Source: a virus
Strand: one strand, 5' to 3'
DNA: 64,000 nucleotides
Virus record (IMG/VR): IMGVR_UViG_3300031993_000003
This document shows, one piece after another, positions 24,998 to 48,021 of this stretch. The stretch's first letter is position 1, and each line of letters starts with the position of its first letter. The translations under genes and the position numbers were made by a program. A model generated the notes under the pieces. That model was not told the origin of the DNA, ran no database searches, and was given only the letters and a program-made list of their open reading frames with translations.

Positions 24998-25432
24998 ATG
25001 AGGATACCTGTAGATATTCGGATTTCTGTGTATTGTGGGCTGGTGCTTGGTTTCTCCCGGAGGCTGCTTGGGAGGGTGCTGGAGCCTTCCGGTGGCAGCC
25101 GGGAGTATAAGGATGGGGAATTCCGGCTGTGCATTGGCAGGAAGGATGCCTTCGGTGCCGCCTTCCCCAGTGGTGACATGTACTGGCTGAAGGGTTTCGG
25201 CGGGAGGTGGCAGGTAAAGAGGATGCTGCGGGAGCTGCGGGAGTTCACCCAGGGGAAGCTGCCGTACGGATGGTCGGTGGTCGTGCTGGAGAAGACGGCG
25301 GCGAACCGGGAGATGCTGCGGGAGATGAAGTACTGGTCGATGATACCGGACCGGGAGGTCTGGAATGCTGTCGAGGAAATTGTCGAGGAAATAGATGCAT
25401 GGTGGGAAGTGAACCGCGGGAGGTTCATGTGA
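24998..25432 (+). CDS. shared-leader family protein
   Basis: RISVYCGLVLGFSRRLLGRVLEPSG. Confidence 0.75.
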   Translation: MRIPVDIRISVYCGLVLGFSRRLLGRVLEPSGGSREYKDGEFRLCIGRKDAFGAAFPSGDMYWLKGFGGRWQVKRMLRELREFTQGKLPYGWSVVVLEKTAANREMLREMKYWSMIPDREVWNAVEEIVEEIDAWWEVNRGRFM

Positions 25433-25833
25433 GGGCGGTGTATGTCCTGATAGTGCTGGGTTTCTCCCGGAGGCTTCTGGGGAGGGTGCTGGTACCTTCC
25501 GGTGGCAGCCGGGTGAGGGAGAGGCCGCAGGACCCTCTATACGAGTGCGCCATGTACCTATACGAGGGGAAGGTCAGCTACAGGGTCGGCGGCACTTTCC
25601 TAGTGGGGGGCCGTGCGTCGGTGGAGGTCAACTACAGGGTGAGTGACAGGTACGGGAGTATTGCCAGGTGCTTCGGGTACGAGATAGGCTTCTACTCGGT
25701 GGGCAAGGGGGACCTTAGCGTGGGTTCCCTTCCGGGCGTGACGTCTCCGCGGATGATGGAGTTCCTGAACTCGGCCTACGATTACGTCAAGTCCATAGTC
25801 CCGGAAGGAAGCAGGCACACGGGGTTGCTATGA
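25429..25833 (+). CDS. shared-leader family protein
   Basis: GTG start, RAVYVLIVLGFSRRLLGRVLVPSG; full-length paralog of 29803-30207. Confidence 0.8.
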   Translation: MRAVYVLIVLGFSRRLLGRVLVPSGGSRVRERPQDPLYECAMYLYEGKVSYRVGGTFLVGGRASVEVNYRVSDRYGSIARCFGYEIGFYSVGKGDLSVGSLPGVTSPRMMEFLNSAYDYVKSIVPEGSRHTGLL

Positions 25834-26183
25834 GGGCGGTATACTTGCTGATAGTTCTTGGGTTCCTCCGGAGGCTGCTTAGGAGGGTGCTGGTACCTTC
25901 CGGTAACTACCGGTGGAGGCACGGGGGGTACGTGCTTGGTCTTCAGGTGGATGGGGAGGAGTACGGTATAGTCGGGTTCGGGCGTCAGGCCAGGGTGGAC
26001 GCCATGCTACTGGACATGATACCATGTGTCGCTCAGAGTATTCCTTGCGGATGCAGCATAAGCGTCAGCGAGGGTAGGGTTGGGGACATGAGGACATGGC
26101 AGGAGATAGATGATTTCCGTGCGAGGAATGTTGCGAGCGAGATATCGGACTGGTTCGACGCGAACGGGGGGAAGTACCTGTGA
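25830..26183 (+). CDS. shared-leader family protein
   Basis: MRAVYLLIVLGFLRRLLRRVLVPSG. Confidence 0.8.
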   Translation: MRAVYLLIVLGFLRRLLRRVLVPSGNYRWRHGGYVLGLQVDGEEYGIVGFGRQARVDAMLLDMIPCVAQSIPCGCSISVSEGRVGDMRTWQEIDDFRARNVASEISDWFDANGGKYL

Positions 26184-26545
26184 GGGCTGTATATCTGCTG
26201 ATAGTTTTGGGATTTTTGCGGCGGTTAATGAGGAGGGTGCTGGTGCCTGCCGGGAGGTGCCGGGTGATGAGCCTGGAGCTTGCCGGGAGGGGGTACGGGC
26301 TTGTCGTCGGTGGACCCTGGGAGATACCGGAGGGTAGGATGTGGGCAGTGGAGGGGAACGCCGCGGTATGGAGCGAGGAGCTCCCGGAGGGTCTCCGCCT
26401 GAGGCTGCTGGAGACGGACAGGCCTGTAGGGAGCGTTGTGAGGTTCTGCCGTGATGTTGGCGTGGGGAGTCCGGGAGAGGTGGAGAGCGTATGCAGAACG
26501 GTGGACTGCTGCATAAGGGACATCCTGGTTGCGAGAGGAATATAA
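26180..26545 (+). CDS. shared-leader family protein
   Basis: MRAVYLLIVLGFLRRLMRRVLVPAG. Confidence 0.8.
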   Translation: MRAVYLLIVLGFLRRLMRRVLVPAGRCRVMSLELAGRGYGLVVGGPWEIPEGRMWAVEGNAAVWSEELPEGLRLRLLETDRPVGSVVRFCRDVGVGSPGEVESVCRTVDCCIRDILVARGI

Positions 26546-26574
26546 ACTGTGGAAAACGGCAGACAGGGTGAAAA

Positions 26575-27354
26575 ATGAATCCAACAAACACTTTCTTCAT
26601 TGGCAAGGACGGCATAGTCCAGCTTGACGACGTACTCTGTTCTATGACGGGAAGCTCCCGGGAGGTACCGGGAGGCGGCGGGGATAAGCCTGAACCGGAA
26701 CCGGAACCGGAACCGGAACCGGAACCGGAACCGGAACCGGAACCGGAACCGGTCGACCCGAATACGGTTATCATAGGCGGAAGGTCATACCGGACTACCA
26801 CCATAGGAAACCAGGTATGGATGGCCGAGAACCTGGACTACAAGTTCGACGGGTGCACGATAGGTGACGAATATGTAGAAAGTAAACCGGGCGCGTGGTA
26901 TCTTCATAACGACGAGACGACATATGGTGTAAACGGAAAAAAATACGGCCTATTATATAATGAAGATGCCATGCTGTATTTGGAAGAGCATTTATCCTCT
27001 CTTGGAATACCGGATGGCTGGCATGTTCCTAGCCAATCAGAAATAGAAACTCTTGTCGAAACTGCTGGTGGTGAAGAACTTGCAGGACCTAGGTTACGAG
27101 CTACCACTGAATGGAAACATGCAGACGGTATAGTAAATACTGATGAGTATTCATTTTCATTATTGCCGGGAGGCGCAAAATGGTCCGATAATTTCACTGA
27201 GGATGGTGAATCCGCATATTTCTGGAGTACTACTATAGACGATTGGGATGGTACATATTATCTATTTGCAACTGTGTATTATGGCGGGGCAGACCATGAT
27301 TGGTATAATGGGTCATATCGTGGGTTTTCCATTCGTCTCGTTAAGGATATGTAA
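26575..27354 (+). CDS. FISUMP (Fibrobacter succinogenes major paralogous) domain protein with Pro-Glu linker
   Basis: IGNQVWMAENL, YGLLY, PDGWHVPS..E, FSLLPGG, FWS, GFSIRLVKD. Confidence 0.9.
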   Translation: MNPTNTFFIGKDGIVQLDDVLCSMTGSSREVPGGGGDKPEPEPEPEPEPEPEPEPEPEPVDPNTVIIGGRSYRTTTIGNQVWMAENLDYKFDGCTIGDEYVESKPGAWYLHNDETTYGVNGKKYGLLYNEDAMLYLEEHLSSLGIPDGWHVPSQSEIETLVETAGGEELAGPRLRATTEWKHADGIVNTDEYSFSLLPGGAKWSDNFTEDGESAYFWSTTIDDWDGTYYLFATVYYGGADHDWYNGSYRGFSIRLVKDM

Positions 27355-27382
27355 CATCAAGATTAAGTAATAATCCCGGTAC

Positions 27383-27784
27383 CTACCGGTGCCTCCACCG
27401 GTTCATAACCTCGTTTGCCTCTGATGGGTCGGTGGTCACCCTGTTCTGCCCGTGGCTCTCGGCGAAATGGGGTACCTGTGGCCAGTGGTCGATGCACCCC
27501 ATGAAGTCGAATACGGACTTGAACTTGTAGTATGTGGAATGCCCTTTCCAGTCATCTAGGCATTCTATATCAATCCTGCAGCGTACGTACTCCCGGAGTC
27601 TCTTCTTGAACTCCTCGGCCTTCTGCTGTGTGTTGAACGAGCCTACTATTGCCGACTCGTTGGCATATGGGTAGATTGCAATCCACCTCCCGGGTCTCCT
27701 AGGTGCATCCGGGGACATCTTCCTTATGGTCTTCCTGGCGAAATGCAGGAATATGGCGAGGTATGCCGCGTTTCTTAAGGTCAT
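27383..27784 (-). CDS. shared-leader family protein
   Basis: MTLRNAAYLAIFLHFARKTIRKMSP. Confidence 0.8.
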   Translation of the reverse strand: MTLRNAAYLAIFLHFARKTIRKMSPDAPRRPGRWIAIYPYANESAIVGSFNTQQKAEEFKKRLREYVRCRIDIECLDDWKGHSTYYKFKSVFDFMGCIDHWPQVPHFAESHGQNRVTTDPSEANEVMNRWRHR

Positions 27785-28101
27785 TGGTAGATGAACTCGT
27801 CGTACGTTTCTACGAGTACCAGGTGCCTGTCCGGTGTCAGCTGTATCTTCTCTTGGATTTCCTCCATGACGTTCCTGGTACGTTCCTCTGCGCCAAGCAG
27901 GTATGAGCCCGTATGGTCGGCATGAACGAGGAACACCCCGTCCTTCCCGTGGGCCCTTTCCAGTATGCTGGCGGTGTCTTCGGAGGAGTTCCGGTAGACC
28001 TGTGCGCATATCCCGGAGTGTTCCAGGACGTCTAGCCACCGGTTGAAGCGCCGGCGAGTCTCGCACTCGAAGTTCGGTACTATCATTCGGTGAGTATGCA
28101 T
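27781..28101 (-). CDS. hypothetical protein
   Basis: stop/start overlaps with both neighbours. Confidence 0.65.
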   Translation of the reverse strand: MHTHRMIVPNFECETRRRFNRWLDVLEHSGICAQVYRNSSEDTASILERAHGKDGVFLVHADHTGSYLLGAEERTRNVMEEIQEKIQLTPDRHLVLVETYDEFIYQ

Positions 28102-29342
28102 CAGTACCTCGCCGCTTCCATGGGGTCGAGGAACCCGTGTATTCCGGACGAGCACTCGGTGTCGGTTATGTCGAAGGGCAGTTCTGGCCTGGCGGTCTTG
28201 CCGATGCGGTACCTGAACCCGGTGTCGTAGTTGGACCTGAGCGACGCGAACATGGGGAGCTTGATGTCCTGTACGGCGTTCACCTTTCCTTCACGGGACT
28301 GCAGAATCCTGTACAATGCAACCGGCTTGGCCTCTGATACGCGTACCTTCCTGGAGAACGCGGTGAACCGGGCTTCGGCGGGCGGTGGCACCTCCATCCT
28401 GATTATAACCGGTTCGTCCTTGTGGAACGGGCGTCGCATTATTACCTTCTTGTACAGGGTGGCCTTTCCCTTAGGGAACCCGGTAGACAGGTAAGTCGAA
28501 GTGAGCATGCGGCAGTCTGGGGGGATGCTGTATTCGGCGCACGCCGATACCCTTGCTGCGATTAAGCCTATCGTGGATATCGAGTCGAGCAGGATTCTGT
28601 GCAGGGTAACGTACCTGAATGACAAAGTCTCTATGCTAGAGCACTTTTTTATTTCGAAGTCCGTCACGGACGCGTCTTCGACCAATACGGTTCCGGGGAG
28701 GTTGGATGACACGATTCTCAGGTAGGCGTTCGTGATAGACGACATCGATAGTACCGATGCATGGTAGTTGCCCTGTTCCGGTGTCAGTGTAGAATTGACT
28801 AGCTCCACGCTTCCGGTTACCTTGTGGACGGAAACGTACCTGGCAGATATGCCGTTTAGGCTGACCTTGTAGAAATACTGTATCGACACGCGCTTGAATT
28901 GACAGTCGTTCATGGCCAGCGACGACAGCTTGTCCTTCGTCCCGGACAGCGACAGGCGTCCTCCGTTGCAAGCGGACATGATTATCCCGTAGCTGTTGTA
29001 GTCTTGATTTTCGGTGACAATGAGTACGCAGGTTGGCCCGAATTCGCAGGTTGGCCCGAATTCGCACCCGATGAAAGATGCCTTCCCGGTAAACTGGACT
29101 GTCCCGGGCGTTATCGAGTTGCCGATGAACTGGCAGTCCACGAATTCCACGTTGCCGACCGGGAGGTTCATTACTGTATATTCAAGGTTGAACGTGTATC
29201 CTTCGACCCGGTAACTGTACGGGCCTACCTGGGGGAACTCCTTGGCGAAGTCGAACCTGTTGTCGACGGTGATGCTTGTCTTTTTCTTCTTGCCGGAACT
29301 GTTCTTTTTAGTGGCGGGGGTCTGGGGTTTCTTCTTTTTCAT
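28101..29342 (-). CDS. beta-solenoid-like protein with C-terminal DUF5758-like domain
   Basis: LYKK...RKVRVSEA...F.Y.IG...CSSGIHGF. Confidence 0.7.
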   Translation of the reverse strand: MKKKKPQTPATKKNSSGKKKKTSITVDNRFDFAKEFPQVGPYSYRVEGYTFNLEYTVMNLPVGNVEFVDCQFIGNSITPGTVQFTGKASFIGCEFGPTCEFGPTCVLIVTENQDYNSYGIIMSACNGGRLSLSGTKDKLSSLAMNDCQFKRVSIQYFYKVSLNGISARYVSVHKVTGSVELVNSTLTPEQGNYHASVLSMSSITNAYLRIVSSNLPGTVLVEDASVTDFEIKKCSSIETLSFRYVTLHRILLDSISTIGLIAARVSACAEYSIPPDCRMLTSTYLSTGFPKGKATLYKKVIMRRPFHKDEPVIIRMEVPPPAEARFTAFSRKVRVSEAKPVALYRILQSREGKVNAVQDIKLPMFASLRSNYDTGFRYRIGKTARPELPFDITDTECSSGIHGFLDPMEAARY

Positions 29343-29390
29343 GCCTACAAATATAGCAAAAAGTTTGCACAAATTGCTATATTTGGTGGC

Positions 29391-29810
29391 ATGCGGATTG
29401 CGGTGTACCTTTCCATCATACTCTATTTCCTCAGGAGACTATTCCGGAGGGTTATGGCGCCTGCCCGCAAGGCCAGGCTGAATCCGGGGAAGAAGTATCC
29501 TTGCCACATCAACCTGTTCAAGATAGACGACATGGGGAGGCTGGGGAGGTTCTACCACGTAGGGTCGGAGCTGATGCTCAACGAACGCCTGCGGAGTGCC
29601 GCGGAGGAATACCTGGAGAAGCACTACGATAGAGTGTTTGCCGACAACGGCGGCTGGACTACCGGAATAGGCACCGACGATGCGGACGACGGGAGCTTCC
29701 AGGAACTTCTCGACACGATGTCCGTGGAGCAAAGCGCCAAGTTCTATAAGATGTGCAGGACGATGGTGTTCGACTTAAAGAAGTTCCTGGCGAGGATGGA
29801 AAATGCGTAG
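29391..29810 (+). CDS. shared-leader family protein
   Basis: MRIAVYLSIILYFLRRLFRRVMAP; leaderless start. Confidence 0.8.
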   Translation: MRIAVYLSIILYFLRRLFRRVMAPARKARLNPGKKYPCHINLFKIDDMGRLGRFYHVGSELMLNERLRSAAEEYLEKHYDRVFADNGGWTTGIGTDDADDGSFQELLDTMSVEQSAKFYKMCRTMVFDLKKFLARMENA

Positions 29811-30207
29811 GGCTATATACTGTGCGATGGTTATTTCGTTCCTGCGGAGGTTGAAAAGCAAGGTCCTTGTGCCTGCCGGTAGCAGCCGGGTGAAGGCCAG
29901 GGTTGGAGACCGGCCATGCGAGTGCGCGATGTTCCTGTACAAGGCCAGTACGATTAACTACCGGATAGGCGGCAAGTTCATTGTGGGTGGCAGGGCGTCA
30001 TGGGATGTCAACGATAGACTGCTTGAGAAGTACGGGAAGGTGGCCAGGTCATTCGGATACAATATTGGATTCTATATTGCGAGTAAGGACGATGTCATAA
30101 GCGGTTATCCCGTGGAATTTACATCGCAGAATATGATGAACTTCCTTCACCAGGCATACGACTATGTACTGAAGATATTGCCGGAAGGATGCAAGAGGAT
30201 TGCTTGA
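29803..30207 (+). CDS. shared-leader family protein
   Basis: MRRAIYCAMVISFLRRLKSKVLVPAG. Confidence 0.8.
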   Translation: MRRAIYCAMVISFLRRLKSKVLVPAGSSRVKARVGDRPCECAMFLYKASTINYRIGGKFIVGGRASWDVNDRLLEKYGKVARSFGYNIGFYIASKDDVISGYPVEFTSQNMMNFLHQAYDYVLKILPEGCKRIA

Positions 30208-30209
30208 CG

Positions 30210-30581
30210 ATGAAGAACGCAGTGTACTTTGCGATATTTCTATATTTCCTCCGGAAGGTGATGTGGCGGCTCCTCCCGGTGGCATCAGGTACTCCCTGGG
30301 TGGTGCTATGGCTGTTGAGGTACGAGGACGAGCCAGGGTCCACCAGGGACAGGTACGTCAGGGTATACGAGGGGCATTCGGCGGTTGCCGCCGGGTGGGC
30401 CCGGGATACTATGATTCTTAATGATTGGAACAGGGAGTTCATAGTGCTGTGCCGTAAGGGACAGCAGAGGGACATCAGGATACTCGACCTGCAGGATGAC
30501 TTCAGCGAGATATACGACCTGATGGACGAATTCAGCGCTGACGAGCTCCGAGACATAGCGCAGAAGGCGAGGTCGATATGA
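30210..30581 (+). CDS. shared-leader family protein
   Basis: MKNAVYFAIFLYFLRKVMWRLLP. Confidence 0.8.
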   Translation: MKNAVYFAIFLYFLRKVMWRLLPVASGTPWVVLWLLRYEDEPGSTRDRYVRVYEGHSAVAAGWARDTMILNDWNREFIVLCRKGQQRDIRILDLQDDFSEIYDLMDEFSADELRDIAQKARSI

Positions 30582-31015
30582 GGAAGGCTATATACTTGTC
30601 GCTGTTGCTGCGGTTCGCCCGCAGGGTCATCCGGAAGGCTAGCCCGGGCAATAAGGAAGCCAAACCAGTTTCTCCCGGTGACATCCCGCTGCCTGCATCG
30701 GGGACATACGGGCTGTTCCTGGTGGACCACTGCGAGAGTCCGGTATATTACCTGTATGGCAACAAGTTCAAGGTTCCTGACGACGAGAATTCCAGGATGA
30801 CACTATATGTGCTGATGCGGCTGATAAAGGGAAAGTACTGTTCCGAAAGGACGCATGTTGGGTTCAGCGTAGAGATACTGCCTTCGGATGGGCCGGAGGA
30901 CTACGTGGGGATGTATCCGGCCTGGACTCAGCACTATGAACAGCACGACAAGGTGATGACCGAGGCATACGGTCATGTAATGGACACAATTCCACCGGAG
31001 TGGTTCCTTGACTAG
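30578..31015 (+). CDS. shared-leader family protein
   Basis: MRKAIYLSLLLRFARRVIRKASP. Confidence 0.8.
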   Translation: MRKAIYLSLLLRFARRVIRKASPGNKEAKPVSPGDIPLPASGTYGLFLVDHCESPVYYLYGNKFKVPDDENSRMTLYVLMRLIKGKYCSERTHVGFSVEILPSDGPEDYVGMYPAWTQHYEQHDKVMTEAYGHVMDTIPPEWFLD

Positions 31016-31433
31016 GGCGGTGTACATCGCAATATTCATAGGTTTCATCCGGAGGTTGCTGCGGAAGGTACTGGTGCCTACCGGTAGCTCTCCGGTGGAC
31101 CCGTTCAGTCCGGGAGGGAAGACCTACAGCATGTACATGATAGATACGGACCTGCACGAGGTCTACTTCAAGTATGGCTGGGAGTTTTACATTCCGGTAG
31201 ACAGCGCGTCGGTACGACGCTTTATCGAACTGAGACAACGGTTCGAACAAAGGTACACCGGAACGGAAACCGGGATGCCGTTCGGCATTCTACTTCTTAG
31301 TTCTTCCGTTTCGGATACGAGGTGGACAAGCTATCCCAGGTACATGGACTACCGTAGTGTACTTGAGCATGCCTGGGCTGACCTCACGAGCATCATGCCG
31401 GGAGAGTGGTTGAGGTTCCCGAATGACAGGTAG
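31008..31433 (+). CDS. shared-leader family protein
   Basis: RAVYIAIFIGFIRRLLRKVLVP. Confidence 0.8.
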   Translation: MTRAVYIAIFIGFIRRLLRKVLVPTGSSPVDPFSPGGKTYSMYMIDTDLHEVYFKYGWEFYIPVDSASVRRFIELRQRFEQRYTGTETGMPFGILLLSSSVSDTRWTSYPRYMDYRSVLEHAWADLTSIMPGEWLRFPNDR

Positions 31434-31806
31434 GGCGGTATATATAGCAATTATTATTGGTTTCTTCCGGAGGCTGCTGCGGAAGGTTATGGTGCCTGCC
31501 GGGAAGCACCGGGCGTTCGCCCTGTATATAGTGGTATACGGAGATTACTACGCAGTTCCAGGTACAGTGCGTGATATGACCGACGGCCTGGCGTGCCTGG
31601 TAAGCGGGGCGGTAATCGATGCGTGGGGGGACTGCTGCGACAAGGCAATTCCATCCATGCGCCTGCAGGTACTCCCGATAGGAAGGCACTACCGGCCGCT
31701 ATGCGAGCTGGAGGACCGGCTCGATGATGCCGAGAAAGCGAGCCTGCGCTGCATAGTCAACGGTGCGCGTGCCACATATAACGACGTGTGGAGGTGGAAC
31801 AAATGA
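31423..31806 (+). CDS. shared-leader family protein
   Basis: RAVYIAIIIGFFRRLLRKVMVP. Confidence 0.8.
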   Translation: MTGRAVYIAIIIGFFRRLLRKVMVPAGKHRAFALYIVVYGDYYAVPGTVRDMTDGLACLVSGAVIDAWGDCCDKAIPSMRLQVLPIGRHYRPLCELEDRLDDAEKASLRCIVNGARATYNDVWRWNK

Positions 31807-32084
31807 AGAATGCGGTGTACTTCGCCATATTCCTGCATTTTGCAAGGAATACAATACGGAAGATTTCCGATAGCAAGTATGCCAGGCCGGTCCGTACGTG
31901 CTTCCGCATGGAAGAAAACGGTGTCAAGATATACTGGGACATGTATGCTGACAAGTCATACGGTGTGTCCATGGCGAGGCGTTACATGTATACAGATGAC
32001 AACAAGGGAAACCTGAAGTCGCCGTATGACATAGTGAAGGACCTCGTGAAAAATAAATACCCTAGCATAATGGAGAGGAAATGA
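31803..32084 (+). CDS. shared-leader family protein
   Basis: MKNAVYFAIFLHFARNTIRKIS. Confidence 0.8.
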   Translation: MKNAVYFAIFLHFARNTIRKISDSKYARPVRTCFRMEENGVKIYWDMYADKSYGVSMARRYMYTDDNKGNLKSPYDIVKDLVKNKYPSIMERK

Positions 32085-32491
32085 GGAACGCGTGCTACTT
32101 TGCCTTGATACTATGGTTCCTCCGGAAGATTATGAGAAGGATAATCCCCTCCGGCGGACAGAGGTACTGCTGCCTGGTTGAACTGACGTCAGGCGATATA
32201 TACTGCTTCGCGTCTTACGGGAGCATACTGAAGTGCCAGGAGGCAACCATGATGCTCCGGGATGCGATAGATAATGAAGGCAAGCATGGGTTCGTCATTG
32301 CATATGGCAGGAAGGACAACGACCGTCCCCCGGTAGGCATCAAGGTGACTTCCCGGGAAATCCATAACATATGGAACGAGAACGACGAGCGGGTTAAGAT
32401 GGGGAGGGCCCACTTCCCTACGACATTCGAACTGATTAGACGGGTTTCCAGGAGCCTGTGCCAGGACGTAGATACCTGCCGGTGCCAATAG
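32081..32491 (+). CDS. shared-leader family protein
   Basis: MRNACYFALILWFLRKIMRRIIP. Confidence 0.8.
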   Translation: MRNACYFALILWFLRKIMRRIIPSGGQRYCCLVELTSGDIYCFASYGSILKCQEATMMLRDAIDNEGKHGFVIAYGRKDNDRPPVGIKVTSREIHNIWNENDERVKMGRAHFPTTFELIRRVSRSLCQDVDTCRCQ

Positions 32492-32499
32492 GAGTTTAA

Positions 32500-34002
32500 A
32501 TGGGTAAGCCAGTAATAAGGAAGCATCCGACCCTGGACATAGAGGTGTCTAGCGACGGACTGGTCAGAGTAAGCGATGAATCCGGGTGGATTCCGGGGGT
32601 GAAGGATGGTGGCAAGCTCAGTGTACGAATCGGAAGCCATCGGTATAGTATACACCGGCTTGTCGCGGAGACGTTCATGCCGAACCCGAAGAACTTGCCG
32701 AACGTTCTCCATGTTGACGGGGACTTCAGGAACAACAGGGTGGAGAACCTGAAGTACGGTGTGCGCGGAGGACTGGAGGCCAGAAGACTTGACATAGCTA
32801 CTGCATTGGCCATAGCAAGCAGGTATGACAAGGTGGTCGACCTTGTGAAGAACGACGCGTCCGTATACGATGTACTGTGGAAGAACGGGCTAGTCGACAA
32901 GGTGTTTCCAAACCGGGTCAAGAAGATGACCCTGGAGGAATGCAAGAAGCGTGCTGCCGAATGCAATACGCTGGTAGAGTTCCGTCGGAAGTATCCGAAT
33001 ACGTACATGAAGTGCAAGAAGGATAATACAATATGGGAGCTCGGGTTTCCCGATACGGCAGATGTCCTGCTGAACTCCCGGGAACTGCGTATTTCTGACG
33101 AGAAGATATGGGAGGCAGCCCAGCAGTTCAGTACTATAAACGACTTCCGTACGAAGAATCCGAAGATGTATGACCGCGCAGTGCGGCATGGCCTTATAGG
33201 AAAGATGACGTTCCTATCACGGAACAAGCATCTGGACAAGGATAGGTACCGTGATTCAGTATACGTATACGAGTTCCCGTCGCATAATACCGCATACGTT
33301 GGCCGTACCGTATCGATATGCCAGAGGGACTCGGCCCATCGCATGTGTGGAGACAAGGTGCGCGACTATGCGGACTCTATCGGTGAGCCGGTTCCCAAGG
33401 TCAAGATACTGCATTCCGGCCTGAATCCGGAGGATGGTGCCTATATAGAGATTAGCGAGATTGCCCATTACCGGGATGCTGGATGGGTTATGCTCAACGA
33501 GAAGTCCGGGGGAGGGCTTGGTGGACTTGAACGGATTACGAAGGCGGACTGCTTCAGGATAGCACGGCAGTTCACTGACTACACGGAGTTCCGAAAGCAG
33601 TATCCGTATATCGTAGACAAGATGCGCAGGAATGGCTGGATAGGAGAATGCGACTGGCTGAAACGTCGTAGGAGGCCGGCAGGTACTTGGATGGACAAGG
33701 AGAACTGCAGAATAGAGGCGGCCAAGTTCAGTACCCGTAACGAGATGCGCATGCACAGCAGGGTAGCGTACGAGGTATGCAAGCGAAATGGTTGGGACGT
33801 AGATTTTTTCGACGAGCCTCCACGGCCAACTGCAAGGAAGGTAGTCAGGCTCTCCCGGACAGGAAAGGTATACCGCCGGTATAATTCACTGAAGGAGGCA
33901 GCCGAGGCAGCCGGGACATTCCCGCAGACTGTAAGCGCTATATGCCGTAAGGTGATGAAGTCGTGGAAGGGGATAGTGTTCCGCTACGCGGACGAAGTCT
34001 AG
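32500..34002 (+). CDS. homing-endonuclease-like protein: HNH + GIY-YIG-like + NUMOD1-like
   Basis: HRLVA...HVDG...NNRVENL; VYVY...YVGRT...R..H...E...N; YNSLKEAA. Confidence 0.75.
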   Translation: MGKPVIRKHPTLDIEVSSDGLVRVSDESGWIPGVKDGGKLSVRIGSHRYSIHRLVAETFMPNPKNLPNVLHVDGDFRNNRVENLKYGVRGGLEARRLDIATALAIASRYDKVVDLVKNDASVYDVLWKNGLVDKVFPNRVKKMTLEECKKRAAECNTLVEFRRKYPNTYMKCKKDNTIWELGFPDTADVLLNSRELRISDEKIWEAAQQFSTINDFRTKNPKMYDRAVRHGLIGKMTFLSRNKHLDKDRYRDSVYVYEFPSHNTAYVGRTVSICQRDSAHRMCGDKVRDYADSIGEPVPKVKILHSGLNPEDGAYIEISEIAHYRDAGWVMLNEKSGGGLGGLERITKADCFRIARQFTDYTEFRKQYPYIVDKMRRNGWIGECDWLKRRRRPAGTWMDKENCRIEAAKFSTRNEMRMHSRVAYEVCKRNGWDVDFFDEPPRPTARKVVRLSRTGKVYRRYNSLKEAAEAAGTFPQTVSAICRKVMKSWKGIVFRYADEV

Positions 34003-34891: not shown

Positions 34892-34893
34892 CG

Positions 34894-35268: not shown

Positions 35269-35331
35269 TGACACCACAAATATAGCAAAAAGTTTTCGAA
35301 AAATTGCTATATTTGGTGAAAAGAGGACAAT

Positions 35332-38816: not shown

Positions 38817-40346
38817 TTGACATAAACAGCCGACCGCAAGATACCGCCCGATGCCGCTAGGCATCGGGGAACCCTTTAGGGCGGTATTTAGGTCGGCTAC
38901 TGCATGGTCTACCTTGTAGTATATAGGGAACCTGAAATGTAAGAAATAAATAAGTTTCCATGAACAGATATTTATTATATATTTGAGTAAAGAACCACTA
39001 AACTTCTATTGAAGTCAAGAATACTGATATGGAACCGGTAAGGAGCGAAGAAACAAAGGCCAGGATACGGGCGAGCATGTCCGCGACGAAGGCGAGGCGG
39101 CAGACGCAGGTCTGCCGCGTGTTCGAGCTCAAGGTATCGGTCCGGCACAACCCGAAGGAAACGTTCAGGAAGCTTGCACAGTGCTTCAAGGAAGCTAAGT
39201 GGGTTGTCAACGACATGCTGTCGCAGACCAAGGACAATCCTGACAACAGCATGTTCGACTACAAGTACACGGAACACAGGGAAGTGGTTCACTACGACCG
39301 AGACAGGAACCCGATAACCGATACCATAACCTTGCCTTCGGTCCTGCACAGGGCTACCGTTGCCCAGAAGAAGACGGATATAGTCAACCTGGCGAAGGCT
39401 AAACAGAAGGGTATAAAGATAGGTGCACTGAAGTTCAGGAGCGAGGTGAACTGCCTGCCCATCATTACCGGTTTCACGCAGATACTGGACGGATGCAGGA
39501 TAACCATTCCCGGGTTCCGTAAGCTCCGTGTGCACGGGATTAACCAGCTGCATCAATTCGAGAAGTTTGAACTTGCCGACGCCAAGCTGATACGGAAGGC
39601 GTCCGGCTACTATGTCAAGATTAGCATAATGCTACCGAAGGAGAGGAGGAACCCTACCGGCAGGAATGTCGGTCTCGACTTCGGCATAAAGGATTCCATA
39701 ACGACGTCATACGGCGACAAGTACAAATGTGATGTGCGAGAAAGCGACCGCCTGAAATATCTTTCCAGGAAGCTGAACAAGCGCGGGAAGAAGAGGAACG
39801 AGAAGGGGTCGAAGCGATATTACAGGTGTCTTCGTCAGCTGAAACGTGAGTACGAGCATGTCGCCAACGCCCGCAAGGACGTCGGCAACAAAATCTACCA
39901 CAAACTGGTGACCGACTATGATGTCATATACTTTCAGGACGAGCAGATAAAGGGATGGCAGAAGGGCCTGTTCGGAAGACAGGTCCAGTCGTCCTGCCTC
40001 GGGTCACTGAAGCAGCGGCTGAAGTCCCTACAGGACTCCGGGCGCAGCTTCATGATTTCCAGGTGGGAGCCGACAACCAAGCTGTGCCCCGCCTGCGGGG
40101 CGATAAACCATCCCACACTGGCCGACCGCATCTACCTCTGTGGCTGCGGCTATACCATGGACAGGGACATCCATTCTGCTAGACTGGTCTTGATGATTGG
40201 CTCGTCAAAGAGAGCCGAGTGCCTGGAACAGGCCTCGATGGAGCCCGGACCTATTATACCGAGAAGCAGCGCAGCTGCGACGAGGCAAGCCCGGGCGGTG
40301 AAGTCGAAACAAGAAGCTGCCGCCCTTTAGGGCGGCGGTAGTTCAC
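38817..40346 (+). mobile_element. IS200/IS605-family tnpB-only element
   Basis: long hairpin at 38828-38898; right-end hairpin CCGCCCTTTAGGGCGG then GTAGTTCAC; no tnpA; left boundary approximate. Confidence 0.7.
39029..40330 (+). CDS. tnpB: TnpB family RNA-guided nuclease-like protein
   Basis: RuvC-I VGLDFG, TTKLCPACG/CGCG zinc finger, RuvC-III DRDIHSA. Confidence 0.85.
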   Translation: MEPVRSEETKARIRASMSATKARRQTQVCRVFELKVSVRHNPKETFRKLAQCFKEAKWVVNDMLSQTKDNPDNSMFDYKYTEHREVVHYDRDRNPITDTITLPSVLHRATVAQKKTDIVNLAKAKQKGIKIGALKFRSEVNCLPIITGFTQILDGCRITIPGFRKLRVHGINQLHQFEKFELADAKLIRKASGYYVKISIMLPKERRNPTGRNVGLDFGIKDSITTSYGDKYKCDVRESDRLKYLSRKLNKRGKKRNEKGSKRYYRCLRQLKREYEHVANARKDVGNKIYHKLVTDYDVIYFQDEQIKGWQKGLFGRQVQSSCLGSLKQRLKSLQDSGRSFMISRWEPTTKLCPACGAINHPTLADRIYLCGCGYTMDRDIHSARLVLMIGSSKRAECLEQASMEPGPIIPRSSAAATRQARAVKSKQEAAAL

Positions 40347-40381
40347 GATAAACTCCGGGTGTTGAAACTCGGAGTTTTTCT

Positions 40382-41257
40382 ATGCGTAACAGGTATCTCG
40401 CAATCAGCGTAAACGGCGGCGGCGCCCTCGGTATCGGCCCACTGGCATTCATGTGCAGGCTCGAGCAGGATACCGGGAAGAAACTGGGAGACCTGGCGGT
40501 TGCCTTCGCCGGTACCTCCACGGGTGCAATCATTGCTGCCGGACTGGACGAGGGATATTCCGCGCATGACCTCTTCGACCTATACAAGGACAACCTCCCG
40601 AAGATTTTCACGAAGTACCCGTGGTACAAGAGGATGACTGCCGGTTGCCCAACGTACGACAACAGCTTCCTGAAGAAGATGCTCCAGGATAAGTTCAAGG
40701 GTACGATGGACCAGTTCAAGAAGCCCATCTTCATCCCTACCACTCATACCAACGGCAAGAGCGTGGAGAAGGTTTGGGACCTCGGGGACACAGGTGTGGA
40801 GAAAGCCTTTTGCATATTAACGAGTACTGCGGCTCCTACGTATTTTGACTGCGTGCAGAAGGATGGTGAATCCTATTCGGATGGTGGGTTATTTTGTAAC
40901 GACCCTATAGCTGTACTTAATGCTGGTCTCAAGCGTTCTGCCTATGGAAGGGACCTTCGAATACTGTCGTTCAATACAGGCATGGAGACGCCGAATACTC
41001 TTAAAGGAAACCAGACGCTGCTCGGCTGGGGAACTTACTTACTGAGCGAATGGGTTGCCAGGGCAGGCAAGAGCAACCTGTACGAGGTATCTGCCGACCT
41101 CGGCTCGGAGAATGTCGCCGCGGCATCTCCCGAATGCTCCAAGAAGATTGACATGGATGACACATCAAGCAAGACTCTGGATAAGGTCATCGGAATATGG
41201 ACGGACTACTACGAGGCCCATAAGGACTACTTCAGGAAGTTCGTTTTGGGCAACTAA
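40382..41257 (+). CDS. patatin-like phospholipase
   Basis: GGGxxG, GTSTG, AAPTYF, DGG. Confidence 0.9.
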   Translation: MRNRYLAISVNGGGALGIGPLAFMCRLEQDTGKKLGDLAVAFAGTSTGAIIAAGLDEGYSAHDLFDLYKDNLPKIFTKYPWYKRMTAGCPTYDNSFLKKMLQDKFKGTMDQFKKPIFIPTTHTNGKSVEKVWDLGDTGVEKAFCILTSTAAPTYFDCVQKDGESYSDGGLFCNDPIAVLNAGLKRSAYGRDLRILSFNTGMETPNTLKGNQTLLGWGTYLLSEWVARAGKSNLYEVSADLGSENVAAASPECSKKIDMDDTSSKTLDKVIGIWTDYYEAHKDYFRKFVLGN

Positions 41258-41559: not shown

Positions 41560-41785
41560 TTCTTTCTTCCTCGGTTATCGGGTATTTTCCGCTTTGCGCC
41601 CGTTTAATCCGTTCGATATTGTCATTGTACAACTGGAAGTTCCTGGCGTATGCCTCGAGGAACTCATTGCTGCTGATGTCGATGGTGAACTTCGGGGTAC
41701 GTTCCTCCCGGACTTTCCGGATTATCTTCCGGAGGCCCCACAGGAATATCCCGGCATATGCTGCGGTTCTGACTGTGGGAATCAT
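41408..41785 (-). CDS. shared-leader family protein
   Basis: RTAAYAGIFLWGLRKIIRK; 3' end overlaps the next gene by ~150 nt. Confidence 0.65.
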   Translation of the reverse strand: MIPTVRTAAYAGIFLWGLRKIIRKVREERTPKFTIDISSNEFLEAYARNFQLYNDNIERIKRAQSGKYPITEEERNGTLEKSTGFSIRYYCTSDGKVDYFEMPGDYQGIHSVQVQCLIQKHRLVT

Positions 41786-42711
41786 TTTCTATCCTTCAGG
41801 AATCCACCTGACTTGCACCTGTCGACGATGTCCACCCAAGATTTCGGCTGTTCGCCGTCGTATCTCAGTTCGCACAGGTAGTCTACACGCCTTCCTGGGT
41901 GGGTATCGGCATATGAATCCTCGTAGGTGGTGTACGGATTGCATGACAGCCGGGCACACCTGTCTATTCCCTGGAGCCCGCTGTCTATGTCTGTATAGAG
42001 GACAAGGAAATTTCGCTCAGACTGGCCGGCATCCATGCCAGGTGCATCCAGTTGTATATCTTTTGCCTGCAGTTCCTCTATCTTTCGGTCACGCCACACG
42101 CAGGCCTGCTCATACGATGTAGTGTTGAGGGTGACTTCTGGCACTAGGGCCTTTCCGTTCGACCCTACCTCGAATACTCCCCCGTACCATACGGCCGAGC
42201 CCCGGTAAAGATTTTTCTGCCGGATTCTAACCTTGAAATTACCTAGTGGACGGTTTCTGTGGTTCGGGAACCGGTTGAAGTCGTTCTCGTCCAGTTCCGC
42301 GATTGCCTTATTAGGCATATGCCTGTACTTATACGGTACACCCCGGTTAATCAGTGTGGCTGCATTGTGCATTCTGTGACGGAACTGTTCCCTGGCGCAC
42401 TTGCTCAGCAGGTAGTGGGCGTACCAGTGTAGAAGGACTGTGAAAGTGACCGTATTGCGGTCGTCCAGTCCATCATCGTCCCGTCTGCGCTCGAAGTAGC
42501 ACGATGGAACTATATGGTGGACTTCCGTATAGCCGGATACTGATAGGTCATTGCTGAGTGCATATAGGCATAGCTTTGCATATTTCCATGCGCTCGGATG
42601 CGTATGTAGGATGAATTCGCCAAGCTGGGAAGTCCTGTCGTCTCCTATCAAGGAACATAGTTTACGGTAGTCTGCTTCGGATGCACCGGCGGTAATTTCT
42701 ATCAGGCGCAT
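41782..42711 (-). CDS. HNH homing-endonuclease-like protein
   Basis: EVHHIVP...N...HWYAH. Confidence 0.7.
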   Translation of the reverse strand: MRLIEITAGASEADYRKLCSLIGDDRTSQLGEFILHTHPSAWKYAKLCLYALSNDLSVSGYTEVHHIVPSCYFERRRDDDGLDDRNTVTFTVLLHWYAHYLLSKCAREQFRHRMHNAATLINRGVPYKYRHMPNKAIAELDENDFNRFPNHRNRPLGNFKVRIRQKNLYRGSAVWYGGVFEVGSNGKALVPEVTLNTTSYEQACVWRDRKIEELQAKDIQLDAPGMDAGQSERNFLVLYTDIDSGLQGIDRCARLSCNPYTTYEDSYADTHPGRRVDYLCELRYDGEQPKSWVDIVDRCKSGGFLKDRK

Positions 42712-42713
42712 AT

Positions 42714-43602: not shown

Positions 43603-43603
43603 T

Positions 43604-44005: not shown

Positions 44006-44017
44006 TCCTGTTCGAGT

Positions 44018-44383: not shown

Positions 44384-44473
44384 GCCCCAAATATAGCAAA
44401 AAATCGGACGGAGAAACGGGAAATTGCTATATTTGGTCGAGTAGATATCCCGCGCGAGACATAGTTTAAGAGT

Positions 44474-45511
44474 ATGACAGAGAAACAGCTTTATCCCATC
44501 GAATATCTTGGGAAGACATACAATACGACAATACACAGGGACCTTACCGACGAGGAGTACGAGGGAATAGTCGCCGGCATCCGCGCGAGACCCTCCCGGG
44601 AGGAAGTCCTCGCCCAGCTGAAGAGCGTCTCCGCCGGAGGCACCCGCATGGACAAGGTGTACTCATACTACTTCAAGGAGTGCGCATACAAGACCTGCCT
44701 CGTGTACAACAACTGGTCAATCGACGAGGCTTTGCGGCACAAGCCTTTGATGGAGTTCTTCGCCGGAAAGTCCGCCGAGAACAAGAAGGTATACCCGGAC
44801 ACGATGCCACTGTGGAAGAAGGTGGAGACCGCGTTCAGGCTCTGCGGGTTCAGGACATGCTCCAAGCCCAGCAACTTCCCGATGAAGGCCATAGACGGCC
44901 TCCTGGAGGCATACTGCCCGGCAGGCGGAAACTACTTCGACTATTCATGCGGATGGGGGGTAAGGCTGCTTTCGGCGCTTAAGCACAACGTGAACTACTT
45001 CGGTACCGACCCGAACTACGAGCTGGTCCCGAAGCTCAGGGAGATGGCAGTGGACTACCGGGAGGCTACTGGTGGCTCCCCGGAAGTCAACGCGAGGTGC
45101 ACCGGGAGCGAGCACCTGCAGGAGGACTGGGTGGGCAAGATGGACCTGGCCTTTACAAGCCCCCCGTACTTCAACCTGGAGGACTACCGGGTTGGCGACC
45201 AGTCCTACAAGGAGGGGACCGACTACGATTCCTGGCTGGAGAACTACGTCGGACCTACCGTAAGGAACTGCCGGGAGTACCTGAAGCCGGGCGGGATATT
45301 CGCCTTCAACATCAAGAACAACTTCAAGTACATAAAGCACGACCTGGAAGGGGACTGGGCAACGATAGCCGAGGAAACCGGTCTTGTATACATCGGAGAA
45401 GTCCCCCTGGAGAATATAACCAGGGTATCCGGGCACAGGCACGAGGACTCCGGGAATACCATGTTGAAGCACGACAATGACGAGGTAATCCGGCTCTACC
45501 GCAAGGCATAA
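44474..45511 (+). CDS. DNA amino-methyltransferase (N4-C or N6-A)
   Basis: motif I FDYSCGWG, motif IV FTSPPY, LKPGG. Confidence 0.85.
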   Translation: MTEKQLYPIEYLGKTYNTTIHRDLTDEEYEGIVAGIRARPSREEVLAQLKSVSAGGTRMDKVYSYYFKECAYKTCLVYNNWSIDEALRHKPLMEFFAGKSAENKKVYPDTMPLWKKVETAFRLCGFRTCSKPSNFPMKAIDGLLEAYCPAGGNYFDYSCGWGVRLLSALKHNVNYFGTDPNYELVPKLREMAVDYREATGGSPEVNARCTGSEHLQEDWVGKMDLAFTSPPYFNLEDYRVGDQSYKEGTDYDSWLENYVGPTVRNCREYLKPGGIFAFNIKNNFKYIKHDLEGDWATIAEETGLVYIGEVPLENITRVSGHRHEDSGNTMLKHDNDEVIRLYRKA

Positions 45512-45544
45512 ACTGCGGTCGAAACTAGAATATAGGGGATAGGA

Positions 45545-46687
45545 ATGGAAGAGAAATTGCCCAACAAGTGGCTGAACTGCGCGATTCCGGGGGTGGCACT
45601 GACCACCTGCATCGGGTCCGTGTACTGCTGGAGCCAGTTCTCCCGGGAGCTCATGGAGACCTTCGGGACGACCCGGTTCCAGACCGACATCGGCTTCACG
45701 CTCATCATCTTCTTCCTCGGCATGTGCGCAGCCATCTTCGGCAGCACAATCGAGAAGAACCCGAGGACGGGGGCGTGGCTGTCAACGATAGTGTTCATCA
45801 CCGGCTTCCTGATGCTCGGGGTGGCCGTCTATACCAAGTGCCTCCCGGCGTTCTACATAGCGACCGCCGTTATCGGAGCCGGTACCGGTATCGGGTACGT
45901 GACCCCGGTGAAGACCCTGATGGCCTTCTTCGCCGACCACAAGGGTATGGCTTCCGGTCTCGCCATTACCGGGTTCGGACTTGCCAAGTTCGTCGCCTCC
46001 CCGGTAATCGAGTGGCTGCTGGCCACGGTTCCGCTCTACGGGGTGTTCTTCGCACTGGGCGGCATCTACGCGGCCGTAATGGTGGTGTCCTCCCTGCTGC
46101 TCCGGAAGTACCCCAAGATGGAGAAGGAATACGGGAATCCGGACTTCCGGTACTCCCTGGTATTCAAGAGGAAGGAATGGTGGGCCATCTGGTTCATGTT
46201 CATGACGAACATTTCCTGTGGACTTGCCATCATCTCCCAGGAGAAGGGGCTTCTGTTAGGACTGGGAATCGCCTCGGTAGCCGCCATCCTCTCCGGGACG
46301 GCACTGGCGAACTCCGGGGGGCGCATCGGGTTCTCGACCCTGTCCGACCGTATCGGTCGCAAGGCGAGCTACCATTTCGTCTGCTCGTTCGGAATATTGG
46401 GAGCATTGTTCTGTGTCACAGGGAGCCCGGTGCTTACCGTAATCGGTATCCTCCTCTGCGAGGCGGCATACGGCGGAAACTTCAGTGTACTTCCTAGCCT
46501 GTTGGCCAAGCGCTTCGGAATGTCCAGCGCCTCCCGGATTCACTCGATGACTCTGACCGGTTGGAGCGTGGGCGGCATCTTCGGGCCGGTGCTGGCTAAC
46601 ACCTTTACGGGCACCACTCTGTACCTGGTGCTTGCCGTACTCTACTTCATCGCGTTCACCGTGATGGAAATTAACGTGAAGAAGTAG
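45545..46687 (+). CDS. MFS transporter, oxalate:formate antiporter (OFA)-like
   Basis: many TM segments; GSVYxWS, GLAxxGFG, SDRIGR, YGG. Confidence 0.85.
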   Translation: MEEKLPNKWLNCAIPGVALTTCIGSVYCWSQFSRELMETFGTTRFQTDIGFTLIIFFLGMCAAIFGSTIEKNPRTGAWLSTIVFITGFLMLGVAVYTKCLPAFYIATAVIGAGTGIGYVTPVKTLMAFFADHKGMASGLAITGFGLAKFVASPVIEWLLATVPLYGVFFALGGIYAAVMVVSSLLLRKYPKMEKEYGNPDFRYSLVFKRKEWWAIWFMFMTNISCGLAIISQEKGLLLGLGIASVAAILSGTALANSGGRIGFSTLSDRIGRKASYHFVCSFGILGALFCVTGSPVLTVIGILLCEAAYGGNFSVLPSLLAKRFGMSSASRIHSMTLTGWSVGGIFGPVLANTFTGTTLYLVLAVLYFIAFTVMEINVKK

Positions 46688-46752
46688 ATTTCCACTGCAA
46701 AATTTGCTATATTTGGGACGTTAATCGTCCCGTTTCTTTTTAGGAATTGTAG

Positions 46753-47280
46753 ATGTACGAATATATTACCAACCACATCCCTGAGGCAATCGGGATAGGC
46801 TCGTCGGCGGCTTCCGCCGGAGGCTTCTTCCTGGTCCGTTGGCTACTGCGCAGGCGCCGCCGGAACAAGATGCTCAGGAAGTTCGGCGCCAACGACATGC
46901 GGGAACTTGCCATCGAGGCAAGGAACAAGAGGCTTAGGAAGGACCTTACCGATGCCTACCGGTTCGTCAAGAAGGCAATCTACCTGGCAAGCACCGGGAA
47001 TGCCGGGTGCAGGGTCACCGTATGCATATGGAAATGGTGCAAGTACTACTTCAAGCAGTATGACGCGGCCACCTGCAAGGAACTGTTCGTCGACCGGCTG
47101 GTAAACCGGCTTCTCGACGAGGGGTTCGCCGCCGAGTACCTCCCGGTAGGCGAACAGAAGGACTCCGCGGAGCCTTCCCTTAGGATTTCCTGGGGAGAGT
47201 CGAGCGACGACCTGGAGGAAATGGTGGAAGAGGAACTGGAGCAACCGGGAGAAACCGGGAAGGAAGAAGCAACATGGTGA
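46753..47280 (+). CDS. membrane-anchored hypothetical protein
   Basis: N-terminal TM followed by RRRRR. Confidence 0.7.
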   Translation: MYEYITNHIPEAIGIGSSAASAGGFFLVRWLLRRRRRNKMLRKFGANDMRELAIEARNKRLRKDLTDAYRFVKKAIYLASTGNAGCRVTVCIWKWCKYYFKQYDAATCKELFVDRLVNRLLDEGFAAEYLPVGEQKDSAEPSLRISWGESSDDLEEMVEEELEQPGETGKEEATW

Positions 47281-47600
47281 AGTCTATAATGAACGCTGTG
47301 TACGTCGCCATAGGTCTGGCGTTCGCCAGGAAGATTTACGAGAAGGCCTGCAGCGACCCGTACGAGAACCTGCCAAGGAGCCACGGGATATTGAAACAAA
47401 GACCCGGGTTCAGCTATCACGACCTGGACATGATTATGGGCAAGCCAGATGCAGGGAAGAGCATAATCAAGACGATAATGGAAACCAGCCGTAACATCGA
47501 ACATGGGAAGATGGGGGTAGTGCCTATGTTCTCCAGTACGCCGAATACGGATGGGCCGTGGAGGCATTTACTTGGCGTGAAGGACATACTCAAGGGCTAG
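47274..47600 (+). CDS. shared-leader family protein
   Basis: NAVYVAIGLAFARKIYEK. Confidence 0.75.
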   Translation: MVKSIMNAVYVAIGLAFARKIYEKACSDPYENLPRSHGILKQRPGFSYHDLDMIMGKPDAGKSIIKTIMETSRNIEHGKMGVVPMFSSTPNTDGPWRHLLGVKDILKG

Positions 47601-47601
47601 C

Positions 47602-48021
47602 ATGGAACGAGCTGCATACCTGCTCATATTCCTCCATTTCCTGCGCAGGCTGTTCAGGAAGCTGTTATTCCGTGTCCGCCTCCCGGTGAGGAGGTGTCCA
47701 CGCTCCGGCGAGAAGGGATACAGCCGCCTCGTCGTTACCGGTGCGAAATACGACCTATGTGGAAACTTCAGCGTCAGGACGCCTGCACATTTCTACTCCC
47801 GCCGCATGGATGAACGCATAGAGGCGGAACTTACCCGTAGGTTCGGCAATAGCATACGGGAAGCTACCGGTGGTGAATTCGACAAAATAATAGTGTACGA
47901 TGGCAAGCTCGCCCCGAAGGACCTTGAGTTCGACGAGGACGGCAACGGGAAGGGTATACCCAGGGAAATCCGGGGGATACTTGCCTCCGCGAGCGAGGAA
48001 TTCGTTAGACTGATGAGGTAA
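47602..48021 (+). CDS. shared-leader family protein
   Basis: MERAAYLLIFLHFLRRLFRKLL. Confidence 0.8.
   Translation: MERAAYLLIFLHFLRRLFRKLLFRVRLPVRRCPRSGEKGYSRLVVTGAKYDLCGNFSVRTPAHFYSRRMDERIEAELTRRFGNSIREATGGEFDKIIVYDGKLAPKDLEFDEDGNGKGIPREIRGILASASEEFVRLMR

Follow-up and report, generated by a model that had tools for sequence, protein, structure and literature searches.

We analysed a 64,000-nucleotide stretch of viral DNA (IMG/VR record IMGVR_UViG_3300031993_000003; hereafter the window), which carries 22 small genes whose products open with the same short N-terminal leader on variable bodies. An earlier note on this sequence had pointed out the leader, and all 22 starts that it listed, by which the genes are named here, open reading frames (ORFs) of 93-145 amino acids (aa) on the strands given (Table 1), with ATG as the start codon in 18 cases, GTG in three and TTG in one. 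The genes are found on both strands, and most of them overlap or abut a neighbour, in agreement with the coupled runs that had been described. When the leaders are aligned on their tyrosine (position 0), this residue and an arginine at +9 are present in all 22 and an alanine at -2 in 20 of the 22, the core reading A-x-Y-x-[AS]-I-x-[LI]-x-F-[LA]-R-[RK]-[IL]-x-R-[KR]. The leader had been put at about 25 residues with a proline at its end; the leader itself stands, with a conserved part of only about 19-21 residues and a variable final proline.

A search with a hidden Markov model (HMM) of the leader, as the earlier note had proposed, finds exactly 22 copies in the six frames of the window (26.3-44.8 bits, the next match scoring 5.8 bits). 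As this model was trained on the same 22 leaders, the independent test is provided by a second viral record (G001; 222 kb, 78% complete) that has dozens of genes in common with the window. The unchanged profile recovers 20 copies there, and a widened profile scores the copies at 18.6 bits or more against 7.2 bits for the next match. Hits elsewhere are likewise N-terminal in small proteins. A degenerate DNA pattern of the leader gave six matches in the window where 0.00 were expected from 100 shuffles.

The codons behind the conserved residues vary, and over 17 orthologous pairs (not all independent) the ratio of non-synonymous to synonymous substitution rates (dN/dS) is 0.27 for the leader and 0.36 for the body. 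Leader and body are thus both under purifying selection and both functional protein, which upholds the protein-level selection that had been claimed from the invariant tyrosine and the varied codons; the same codon variation and dN/dS rule out that the leader is an embedded DNA promoter or repeat. The description of the leader as a new tag also holds, as it has no match in Pfam, PHROGs, NCBIfam or the PDB. The 22 proteins found nothing at E<0.001 in the first three (29391 against phrog_27456, E 0.005, and a single match of 36396, E 0.002, were dropped as weak), the leader found no PDB sequence at E<=10, and the largest body cluster nothing there better than E 0.44. No description of the leader or of the host promoter was found in the literature covered, which excluded subscription papers and preprint supplements.

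The window proteins were placed on a 284,234-nt contig, with relatives on contigs of 222-455 kb. G001 encodes a T4-type terminase, a baseplate wedge protein, a sigma factor and an RNA ligase, and another leader-bearing locus a T4-type DNA polymerase about 25-29% identical to those of cultured phages. The stretch is present in bovine gut metagenomes (seven runs, three of which may be the source itself), and the contigs from other runs, which cover short pieces of the window, show no differences and no strain variation. The phage is an uncultured T4-like jumbo phage of the cattle gut. Its host is likely Fibrobacter, as judged from a Fib_succ_major gene inside the leader array (E 3e-30) and from a relative of the window's MFS transporter labelled Fibrobacter sp.; since the 466-kb contig of this relative might come from a phage that was binned together with its host, we put the assignment no higher than likely.

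A 31-column leader profile run against 1.84 billion representatives gave 92 matches, 89 of which are proteins of 55-168 aa with the tyrosine between residues 5 and 17, among them six from the window itself; the other three, long repeat proteins, were dropped. When the search was opened to 71-2000 aa (7999 candidates scored), it gave 50 matches, all of them 97-165 aa long, with the tyrosine at 5-18 and no Pfam domain. Loci other than G001 carry 9, 8, 4, 4, 2, 2 and 2 copies, and seven of 25 pattern loci (L011, L019, L020, L022-L025) failed the leader HMM and were dropped as chance. One exact pattern gave two raw matches in GTDB genome contigs, neither passing the HMM, a weak test since the pattern catches only 6 of the window's 22 leaders. 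Searches by tblastn with 29391, 25830 and P0080 (a relative) found no match among cultured phages and plasmids, and neither did a single-protein scan and two narrow pattern scans of viral contigs.

Bodies, leader exchange and head-protein likeness

The 183 distinct bodies were grouped into 77 clusters by BLAST and 57 by HMM, with no decoy match at the merge threshold. Those of the window fall into 15 clusters, and 11 of the 22 have a sibling in the window (24998/25830; 25429/29803; 30578/31008/31423; 27784/34517/34891/35268). The two pairs that the earlier note had singled out as related, 25429/29803 and 30578/31008, are among these, and further siblings exist beyond them. Only 2 of the 20 G001 bodies belong to a cluster with a window body (the 20th, P0124, is in a non-window cluster), which indicates, at the level of sequence clusters, that the tag is kept while the body repertoire turns over. 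After merging, HMM matches between clusters still exceed those of reversed decoys (28 against 3 at E<=0.05, 176 against 43 at E<=0.5), which suggests remote kinship or a common order of secondary structure across clusters.

AlphaFold models of 34891 and 25830, from different clusters, reached a predicted local distance difference test (pLDDT) of 81.9 and 80.5 from 16 and 14 sequences. Compared by secondary-structure order, both begin with a leader that forms one helix, continue through a linker into a beta-hairpin followed by a helix, and close with a further helix; they differ in the middle of the body, with a clear third strand in 25830. In the latter model the leader helix sits on a linker with pLDDT below 50, which would fit a leader that is a separate module. 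The best structural neighbours of the two models had Z 3.7 (root-mean-square deviation, rmsd, 3.0, 57 aligned) and 3.8 (rmsd 3.6, 63 aligned), with none at 5 or above, and the 25830 model found nothing under E 0.1 in a viral structure library; such low values, obtained with predicted models, are evidence neither of a match nor of a new fold.

The likeness of leaders follows neighbourhood and not body ancestry. The body of 25429 matches that of 29803 (alignment score 268) and scores only 25 against that of 25830, while its leader DNA is 0.57 identical to that of 29803 and 0.83 identical to that of its neighbour 25830, and also resembles that of 24998. In the same way, 31008 has a body that matches 30578 (score 111, against 24 with 31423) and leader DNA that is 0.49 identical to that of 30578 and 0.82 identical to that of its neighbour 31423. 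Leader DNA identity drops with distance (Spearman -0.24, 231 non-independent pairs). Where two bodies are 90% identical or more (37 pairs), mean leader identity is 0.89 against 0.95 for the bodies; P0020 and P0036 are 98% identical in body and 76% in leader, and identical leaders occur on different body clusters (P0020, P0025, P0015). From these comparisons, it seems likely that leaders have been exchanged between neighbouring genes by recombination or gene conversion.

In relatives, some bodies resemble phage head proteins, a likeness that was first spotted by eye and then tested with profiles. Residues 39-89 of P0080 score above the Pfam Gp23 cut-off (E 1.2e-5) and also match PHROG 138. With home-built profiles (84 gp23 and 28 gp20 sequences), 5 of 225 bodies match gp23 and 7 of 225 match gp20 at E<=0.01, while none of the 225 reversed and none of the 900 shuffled controls did so; since the matches to each come from one cluster, they count as two events, not twelve. 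Profile-profile comparison, which covered 23 of the 57 clusters, gave E 2.5e-4 for the gp23-like and 7.7e-5 for the gp20-like cluster, and P0081 matched gp20 over 57 columns at E 0.003, the best decoy being at 0.025. A gp20-like (portal) gene and a gene of the gp23 cluster adjoin within four adjacent leader genes of G001 (39434-40249; L006 16920-17735, minus strand); a search of G001 for Gp23 itself gave no match. Profiles of gp17, gp18, gp19, gp21 and gp22 matched no body at E<=0.1 (those of gp17 and gp18 being one sequence each), and among recognised domains in 97 relatives the capsid-like segments alone stood out. A capsid or portal origin of the window's own bodies was tested and set aside: the best match, 24998 against gp20, had E 0.014 with the best decoy at 0.025, and profile-profile comparison did not support a head-protein origin of 31803 and 47274.

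The leader genes could be an ordinary, fast-diverging family of paralogues whose first helix is simply its best-conserved element. Such a family would account for the excess of cross-cluster matches over decoys, for the hairpin-helix start and terminal helix common to the two models and for the uniform sizes, and a search of 15,084 six-frame segments turned up no leaderless homologue of a body. As an account of the whole set we find it improbable (for the capsid-like clusters it is partly refuted), because the same leader stands on gp23-like and gp20-like bodies, because leader identity tracks neighbourhood rather than body ancestry, because P0059 carries two tandem leaders (tyrosines at residues 9 and 46) and because the 25830 linker is modelled with low confidence. 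Judging by sequence and models together, a large share of the bodies probably belongs to a single diverged family, contrary to the earlier note's wording of mostly unrelated bodies; given the gp23-like and gp20-like bodies of relatives, the bodies are, by sequence, not all one ordinary family. The idea of a diversified library is borne out in part: leaders and bodies are decoupled and relatives add non-homologous bodies, but many bodies probably have a common topology, so that part of the library would consist of diverged paralogues.

Promoter-like motifs and neighbouring genes

There are 15 copies of the motif TGCTATATTT in the window, where 30 base shuffles gave a mean of 0.07, and every run of leader genes lies downstream of a copy. 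Five back-to-back pairs (24959/24979, 29358/29375, 35287/35305, 44398/44425 and 58063/58088) resemble divergent promoters, and at many sites the motif stands just 5-6 nt before an ATG, a spacing that suggests leaderless mRNAs. Promoter classes were assigned from the genes behind each motif: TGCTATATTT also precedes a DNA ligase gene, and TATAAAC precedes a baseplate wedge gene. For 41 of 42 leader genes (22/22 in the window and 19/20 in G001), TGCTATATTT is nearer than TATAAAC[AT], against a baseline that is already 0.65-0.74 and with the window's 22 genes depending on only seven sites.

A second class of genes, present in the window and in G001 (18427, 25524, 71831, 73119 and others), encodes proteins with an acidic N-terminal propeptide that ends in L/M/C-x-E-A/G. 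Several members of a hand-picked set (n=11) lie directly behind TATAAACT or TATAAAC. Neither the profile of this class nor that of the hydrophobic-basic leader scores the other class above 0.6 bits. From its sequence features, the acidic class looks like the capsid-targeting or protease-cleaved class of the phage.

This bears on capsid loading, the usual reading of common leaders in T4-like phages according to PMC9026906, under which the leader would be a capsid-targeting sequence (CTS) that loads proteins into the head for injection. The setting is suitable, as a T4-like jumbo phage carries small, diverse proteins with a common short tag, some bodies resemble head proteins, and the T4 CTS, too, is described as a short tag at the N-terminus of proteins with divergent bodies (PMC9026906). 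Even so, we rate it as quite improbable. The internal proteins IPI-III of T4 have a CTS of 10 aa that gp21 cuts after I/L-x-E, whereas I/L-x-E is found in 11 of 183 leaders and in 16 of 183 first-25-residue stretches of the bodies, at scattered positions. The leader genes, within the limits of baseline and site number given above, side with TGCTATATTT and not with TATAAAC[AT], and the same phages possess the separate acidic class ending in L/M/C-x-E.

Several other genes are interleaved with the arrays (Table 1). The Fib_succ_major protein has a Pro-Glu repeat and lies behind TATAAACT, inserted among leader genes; a related domain occurs in the tail-gene region of G001. The OFA-family MFS transporter marks a large clade of giant phages; its close relatives are 98-100% identical, and many others reach 74-87%, several of these on contigs of 390-480 kb. 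The overlapping leader genes 41559 and 41785 both have relatives elsewhere. A GC-rich element, CCCGGTAG / ATGCTCCCG, is repeated between many short genes and is possibly an early promoter class.

Table 1. Positions of leader genes, promoter-like motifs and other features in the window
Feature	Position	Strand	Remarks
GC-rich element CCCGGTAG / ATGCTCCCG	1-20000 and ~56000-60000		repeated
Small Gly/Ser/Tyr/Asp-repeat genes	20459-22501	-	several; three begin MEx(D/K/E)EF(L/I)KN
PTH2-like gene	24053-24706
TGCTATATTT promoter-like motif	24979..24988	+	heads run 24998-26545; back-to-back minus-strand copy at 24959; putative promoter
Leader protein, 144 aa	24998..25432	+	leader core 25025-25081; body cluster with 25830
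Leader protein, 134 aa	25429..25833	+	body shares 52% identity with 29803, leader most similar to those of neighbouring genes
Leader protein, 117 aa	25830..26183	+	modelled: leader helix 2-20, body E-E-H-E-H
Leader protein, 121 aa	26180..26545	+	ORF and leader HMM
Fib_succ_major protein	26575-27354	+
Leader protein, 133 aa	27383..27784	-	largest body cluster
TGCTATATTT motif	29375..29384	+	heads eight-gene run 29391-32491; minus partner at 29358 heads run ending in 27784
Leader protein, 139 aa	29391..29810	+	ORF
Leader protein, 134 aa	29803..30207	+	ORF
Leader protein, 123 aa	30210..30581	+	sole body cluster common to window and G001
Leader protein, 145 aa	30578..31015	+	ORF
Leader protein, 141 aa	31008..31433	+	TTG start codon; body resembles that of 30578, leader that of 31423
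Leader protein, 127 aa	31423..31806	+	ORF
Leader protein, 93 aa	31803..32084	+	in one relative, at most a weak gp23 likeness
Leader protein, 136 aa	32081..32491	+	ORF
HNH endonuclease gene	32500-34002
Leader protein, 124 aa	34143..34517	-	largest body cluster
Leader protein, 125 aa	34514..34891	-	modelled: leader helix 3-24, body E-E-H-H-E-H
Leader protein, 124 aa	34894..35268	-	largest body cluster
TGCTATATTT back-to-back pair	35278..35314	35287 minus, 35305 plus	heads runs to 34143 and to 36396
Leader protein, 125 aa	36396..36773	+	ORF
IS605 TnpB-like nuclease gene	39029-40330
Patatin-like phospholipase gene	40382-41257
Leader protein, 101 aa	41254..41559	-	first 152 nt overlap end of 41785 gene in another frame
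Leader protein, 125 aa	41408..41785	-	ORF
Homing endonuclease gene	41782-42711
Leader protein, 138 aa	43186..43602	-	ORF
TGCTATATTT motif	44389..44398	-	nearest upstream of 43602, 41785 and 41559; paired with 44425
OFA-family MFS transporter	45545-46687	+
TGCTATATTT motif	46705..46714	+	nearest upstream of 47274 and 47602
Leader protein, 108 aa	47274..47600	+	ORF
Leader protein, 139 aa	47602..48021	+	ORF
TGCTATATTT back-to-back pair	58063/58088		promoter-like, divergent
Acidic-propeptide class	58484-59455	+

A possible membrane address

The anatomy of the leader was computed over 57 cluster representatives, with hydrophobicity on the Fauchere-Pliska scale. Its N-half (from Ala-2 to +8) consists of 11 uncharged, uniformly hydrophobic residues (mean hydrophobicity 1.11, net charge 0, moment 0.22 against 0.20 when shuffled), and its C-half has the features of a basic amphipathic helix (moment 0.52 against 0.33 when shuffled, net charge +3.3). 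Asp and Glu account for only 32 of 3843 leader residues. The earlier note had found no Sec, Tat or lipoprotein signal in the leader, and inspection of the sequences bears this out: an n- and an h-region are present, with the hydrophobic run followed by Arg, then mostly Arg/Lys, and by a basic helix in place of a c-region; the Tat motif S/T-R-R-x-F-L before the hydrophobic region is found in 0/22, the arginines coming after the run, and a lipobox ending in Cys in 0/22.

The leader might still serve export, or act as a reverse signal-anchor, in a Fibrobacter pathway yet to be studied, the bodies being periplasmic or across the membrane. At least one Lys/Arg precedes the hydrophobic run in 21 of 22 leaders and, to our knowledge, the secretion signals of Fibrobacter are poorly known. 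We nevertheless hold this to be very improbable, as all 22 lack a lipobox and a Tat motif, as the leader pattern (in the weak test described above) has no true match in GTDB genome contigs and as at least three basic residues follow the run. By the positive-inside rule, basic residues after a hydrophobic run keep the body cytoplasmic.

The earlier note had left three options for the leader, membrane tethering, virion loading and binding of a common hub, of which tethering is the best fit to the predicted anatomy and virion loading is disfavoured. The reading that we favour, and to which we give an even chance, is that the leader is an uncleaved membrane-targeting helix that pins a library of host-conflict proteins to the cytoplasmic face of the inner membrane. 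The proteins would be expressed from a non-late promoter class; the hydrophobic half would sink into the bilayer and the basic amphipathic half would lie on the anionic head groups, much as the MinD helix does. Through its fixed Ala/Tyr/Arg pattern, the leader may in addition contact a shared membrane partner, helix to helix. Recombination between leaders would put new bodies under the tag, and the variable bodies would act at the membrane against host defences or competing phages, a role that small, non-late genes with fast turnover fit.

The main rival has the leader dock, as a helix, onto a single protein hub, be it a complex of host or phage or else other leaders, with membrane contact secondary or absent, since fixed Ala, Tyr, Ile, Phe and Arg residues argue for an added specific contact. 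Across the cluster representatives, Tyr and Arg are present in 57 of 57, Ala(-2) in 93%, Phe(+7) in 89% and Ile(+3) in 86%; one face of the helix carries small residues at -2, +2 and often +6, and payload size is confined to 55-168 aa, as for adaptors. We consider a hub unlikely: the N-half is hydrophobic all round and has no moment, which is more in keeping with lipid than with a soluble groove, and no candidate hub was identified.

Several points weigh against a membrane address with a conflict role. The uncharged run of 8-15 residues (best 19-residue hydropathy 0.57-1.63) is too short for a plain membrane span, short hydrophobic or amphipathic helices also serve as protein-docking motifs, and the invariant Tyr and Arg, in part a product of how members were selected, exceed what a lipid anchor needs. 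The pLDDT of the leader is modest (58/51 and 67/77), and many bodies look remotely related, so that the helix could belong to an ancestral fold. The preference for TGCTATATTT is tempered by its high baseline and few sites, the conflict role is drawn from gene context alone, and clear capsid or portal segments occur in relatives only, none being clear among the window's 22.

If the leader is a membrane address, about 20 otherwise anonymous genes per genome become one functional class, and the phages of a main gut cellulose degrader become open to a direct screen for envelope-level counter-defence. The likely swaps of leaders illustrate one way for a phage to make new genes, and a single clade of phages seems to maintain two classes of tag: a late, acidic class resembling capsid loading and the hydrophobic-basic leader. 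A more speculative extension, to which we assign a low probability, is that the membrane-pinned mini-proteins form a recombining library, in which the swappable helix captures pieces of other genes, conserved segments of the major capsid and portal proteins among them, and displays them at the inner membrane before the late genes are expressed. There they would either deceive the host's capsid and portal sensors, as decoys, or poison the head assembly of a rival phage on the membrane. According to a preprint (bioRxiv 10.64898/2026.01.04.697583), Avs7/8/10 sense capsid folds, Avs4/11 the portal, and Lit and CapRel short capsid motifs, and T4 proheads are described as maturing on the membrane (PMC9026906); it is from these two sets of observations that the extension is drawn. 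Fragments would not mimic whole-fold triggers and might mimic short-motif ones. With capsid and portal as known sensor triggers, the tagged fragments make the decoy idea testable.

Comparison with known systems

The bodies of the largest cluster have a hairpin-Gly-x-Phe-helix pattern reminiscent of SPOR / DUF7336-like small alpha-beta domains. SPOR is the nearest named Atlas cluster to them (0.76), and the SPOR domain of RlpA aligns with the model of a largest-cluster body at Z 3.2 (rmsd 3.4, 54 aligned); both values are below the bar of the respective tool, and there is no Pfam hit. As a genetic design, the arrays resemble polymorphic systems, in which a constant N-terminal delivery part is joined to a variable C-terminal part: the constant head, the variable payloads and the exchange by recombination in the constant part are alike, whereas the head is here just 20 aa. 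Nothing like a toxin domain, an immunity gene or a secretion system could be recognised, and none of the 22 proteins matches a family at E<0.001.

For the tag itself, a close parallel is the membrane-targeting sequence of MinD, a short amphipathic helix that, according to PMC8155659, can be transplanted as a membrane tag to unrelated proteins. The C-half of the leader has the make-up of such a short basic amphipathic helix. The MinD sequence differs in being C-terminal, in belonging to one ATPase family and in being weak alone in E. coli, while the leader is N-terminal, has an added 11-residue hydrophobic half and a fixed Tyr/Arg, and occurs about 20 times per genome; no sequence homology between the two is claimed.

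The T4 CTS is also a short N-terminal tag on small divergent proteins and a way to deploy variable counter-defence cargo (PMC9026906). In contrast to it, the leader is about 20 aa long, hydrophobic then basic, nearly devoid of acidic residues and associated with a non-late motif, and its phages also possess a separate CTS-like class. A tag with variable cargo is thus already known in T4-like phages, as capsid loading, and the general design of a constant tag is not new; what is new is the leader tag itself, its likely membrane address, its likely swapping between genes and the head-protein fragments that it carries in relatives.

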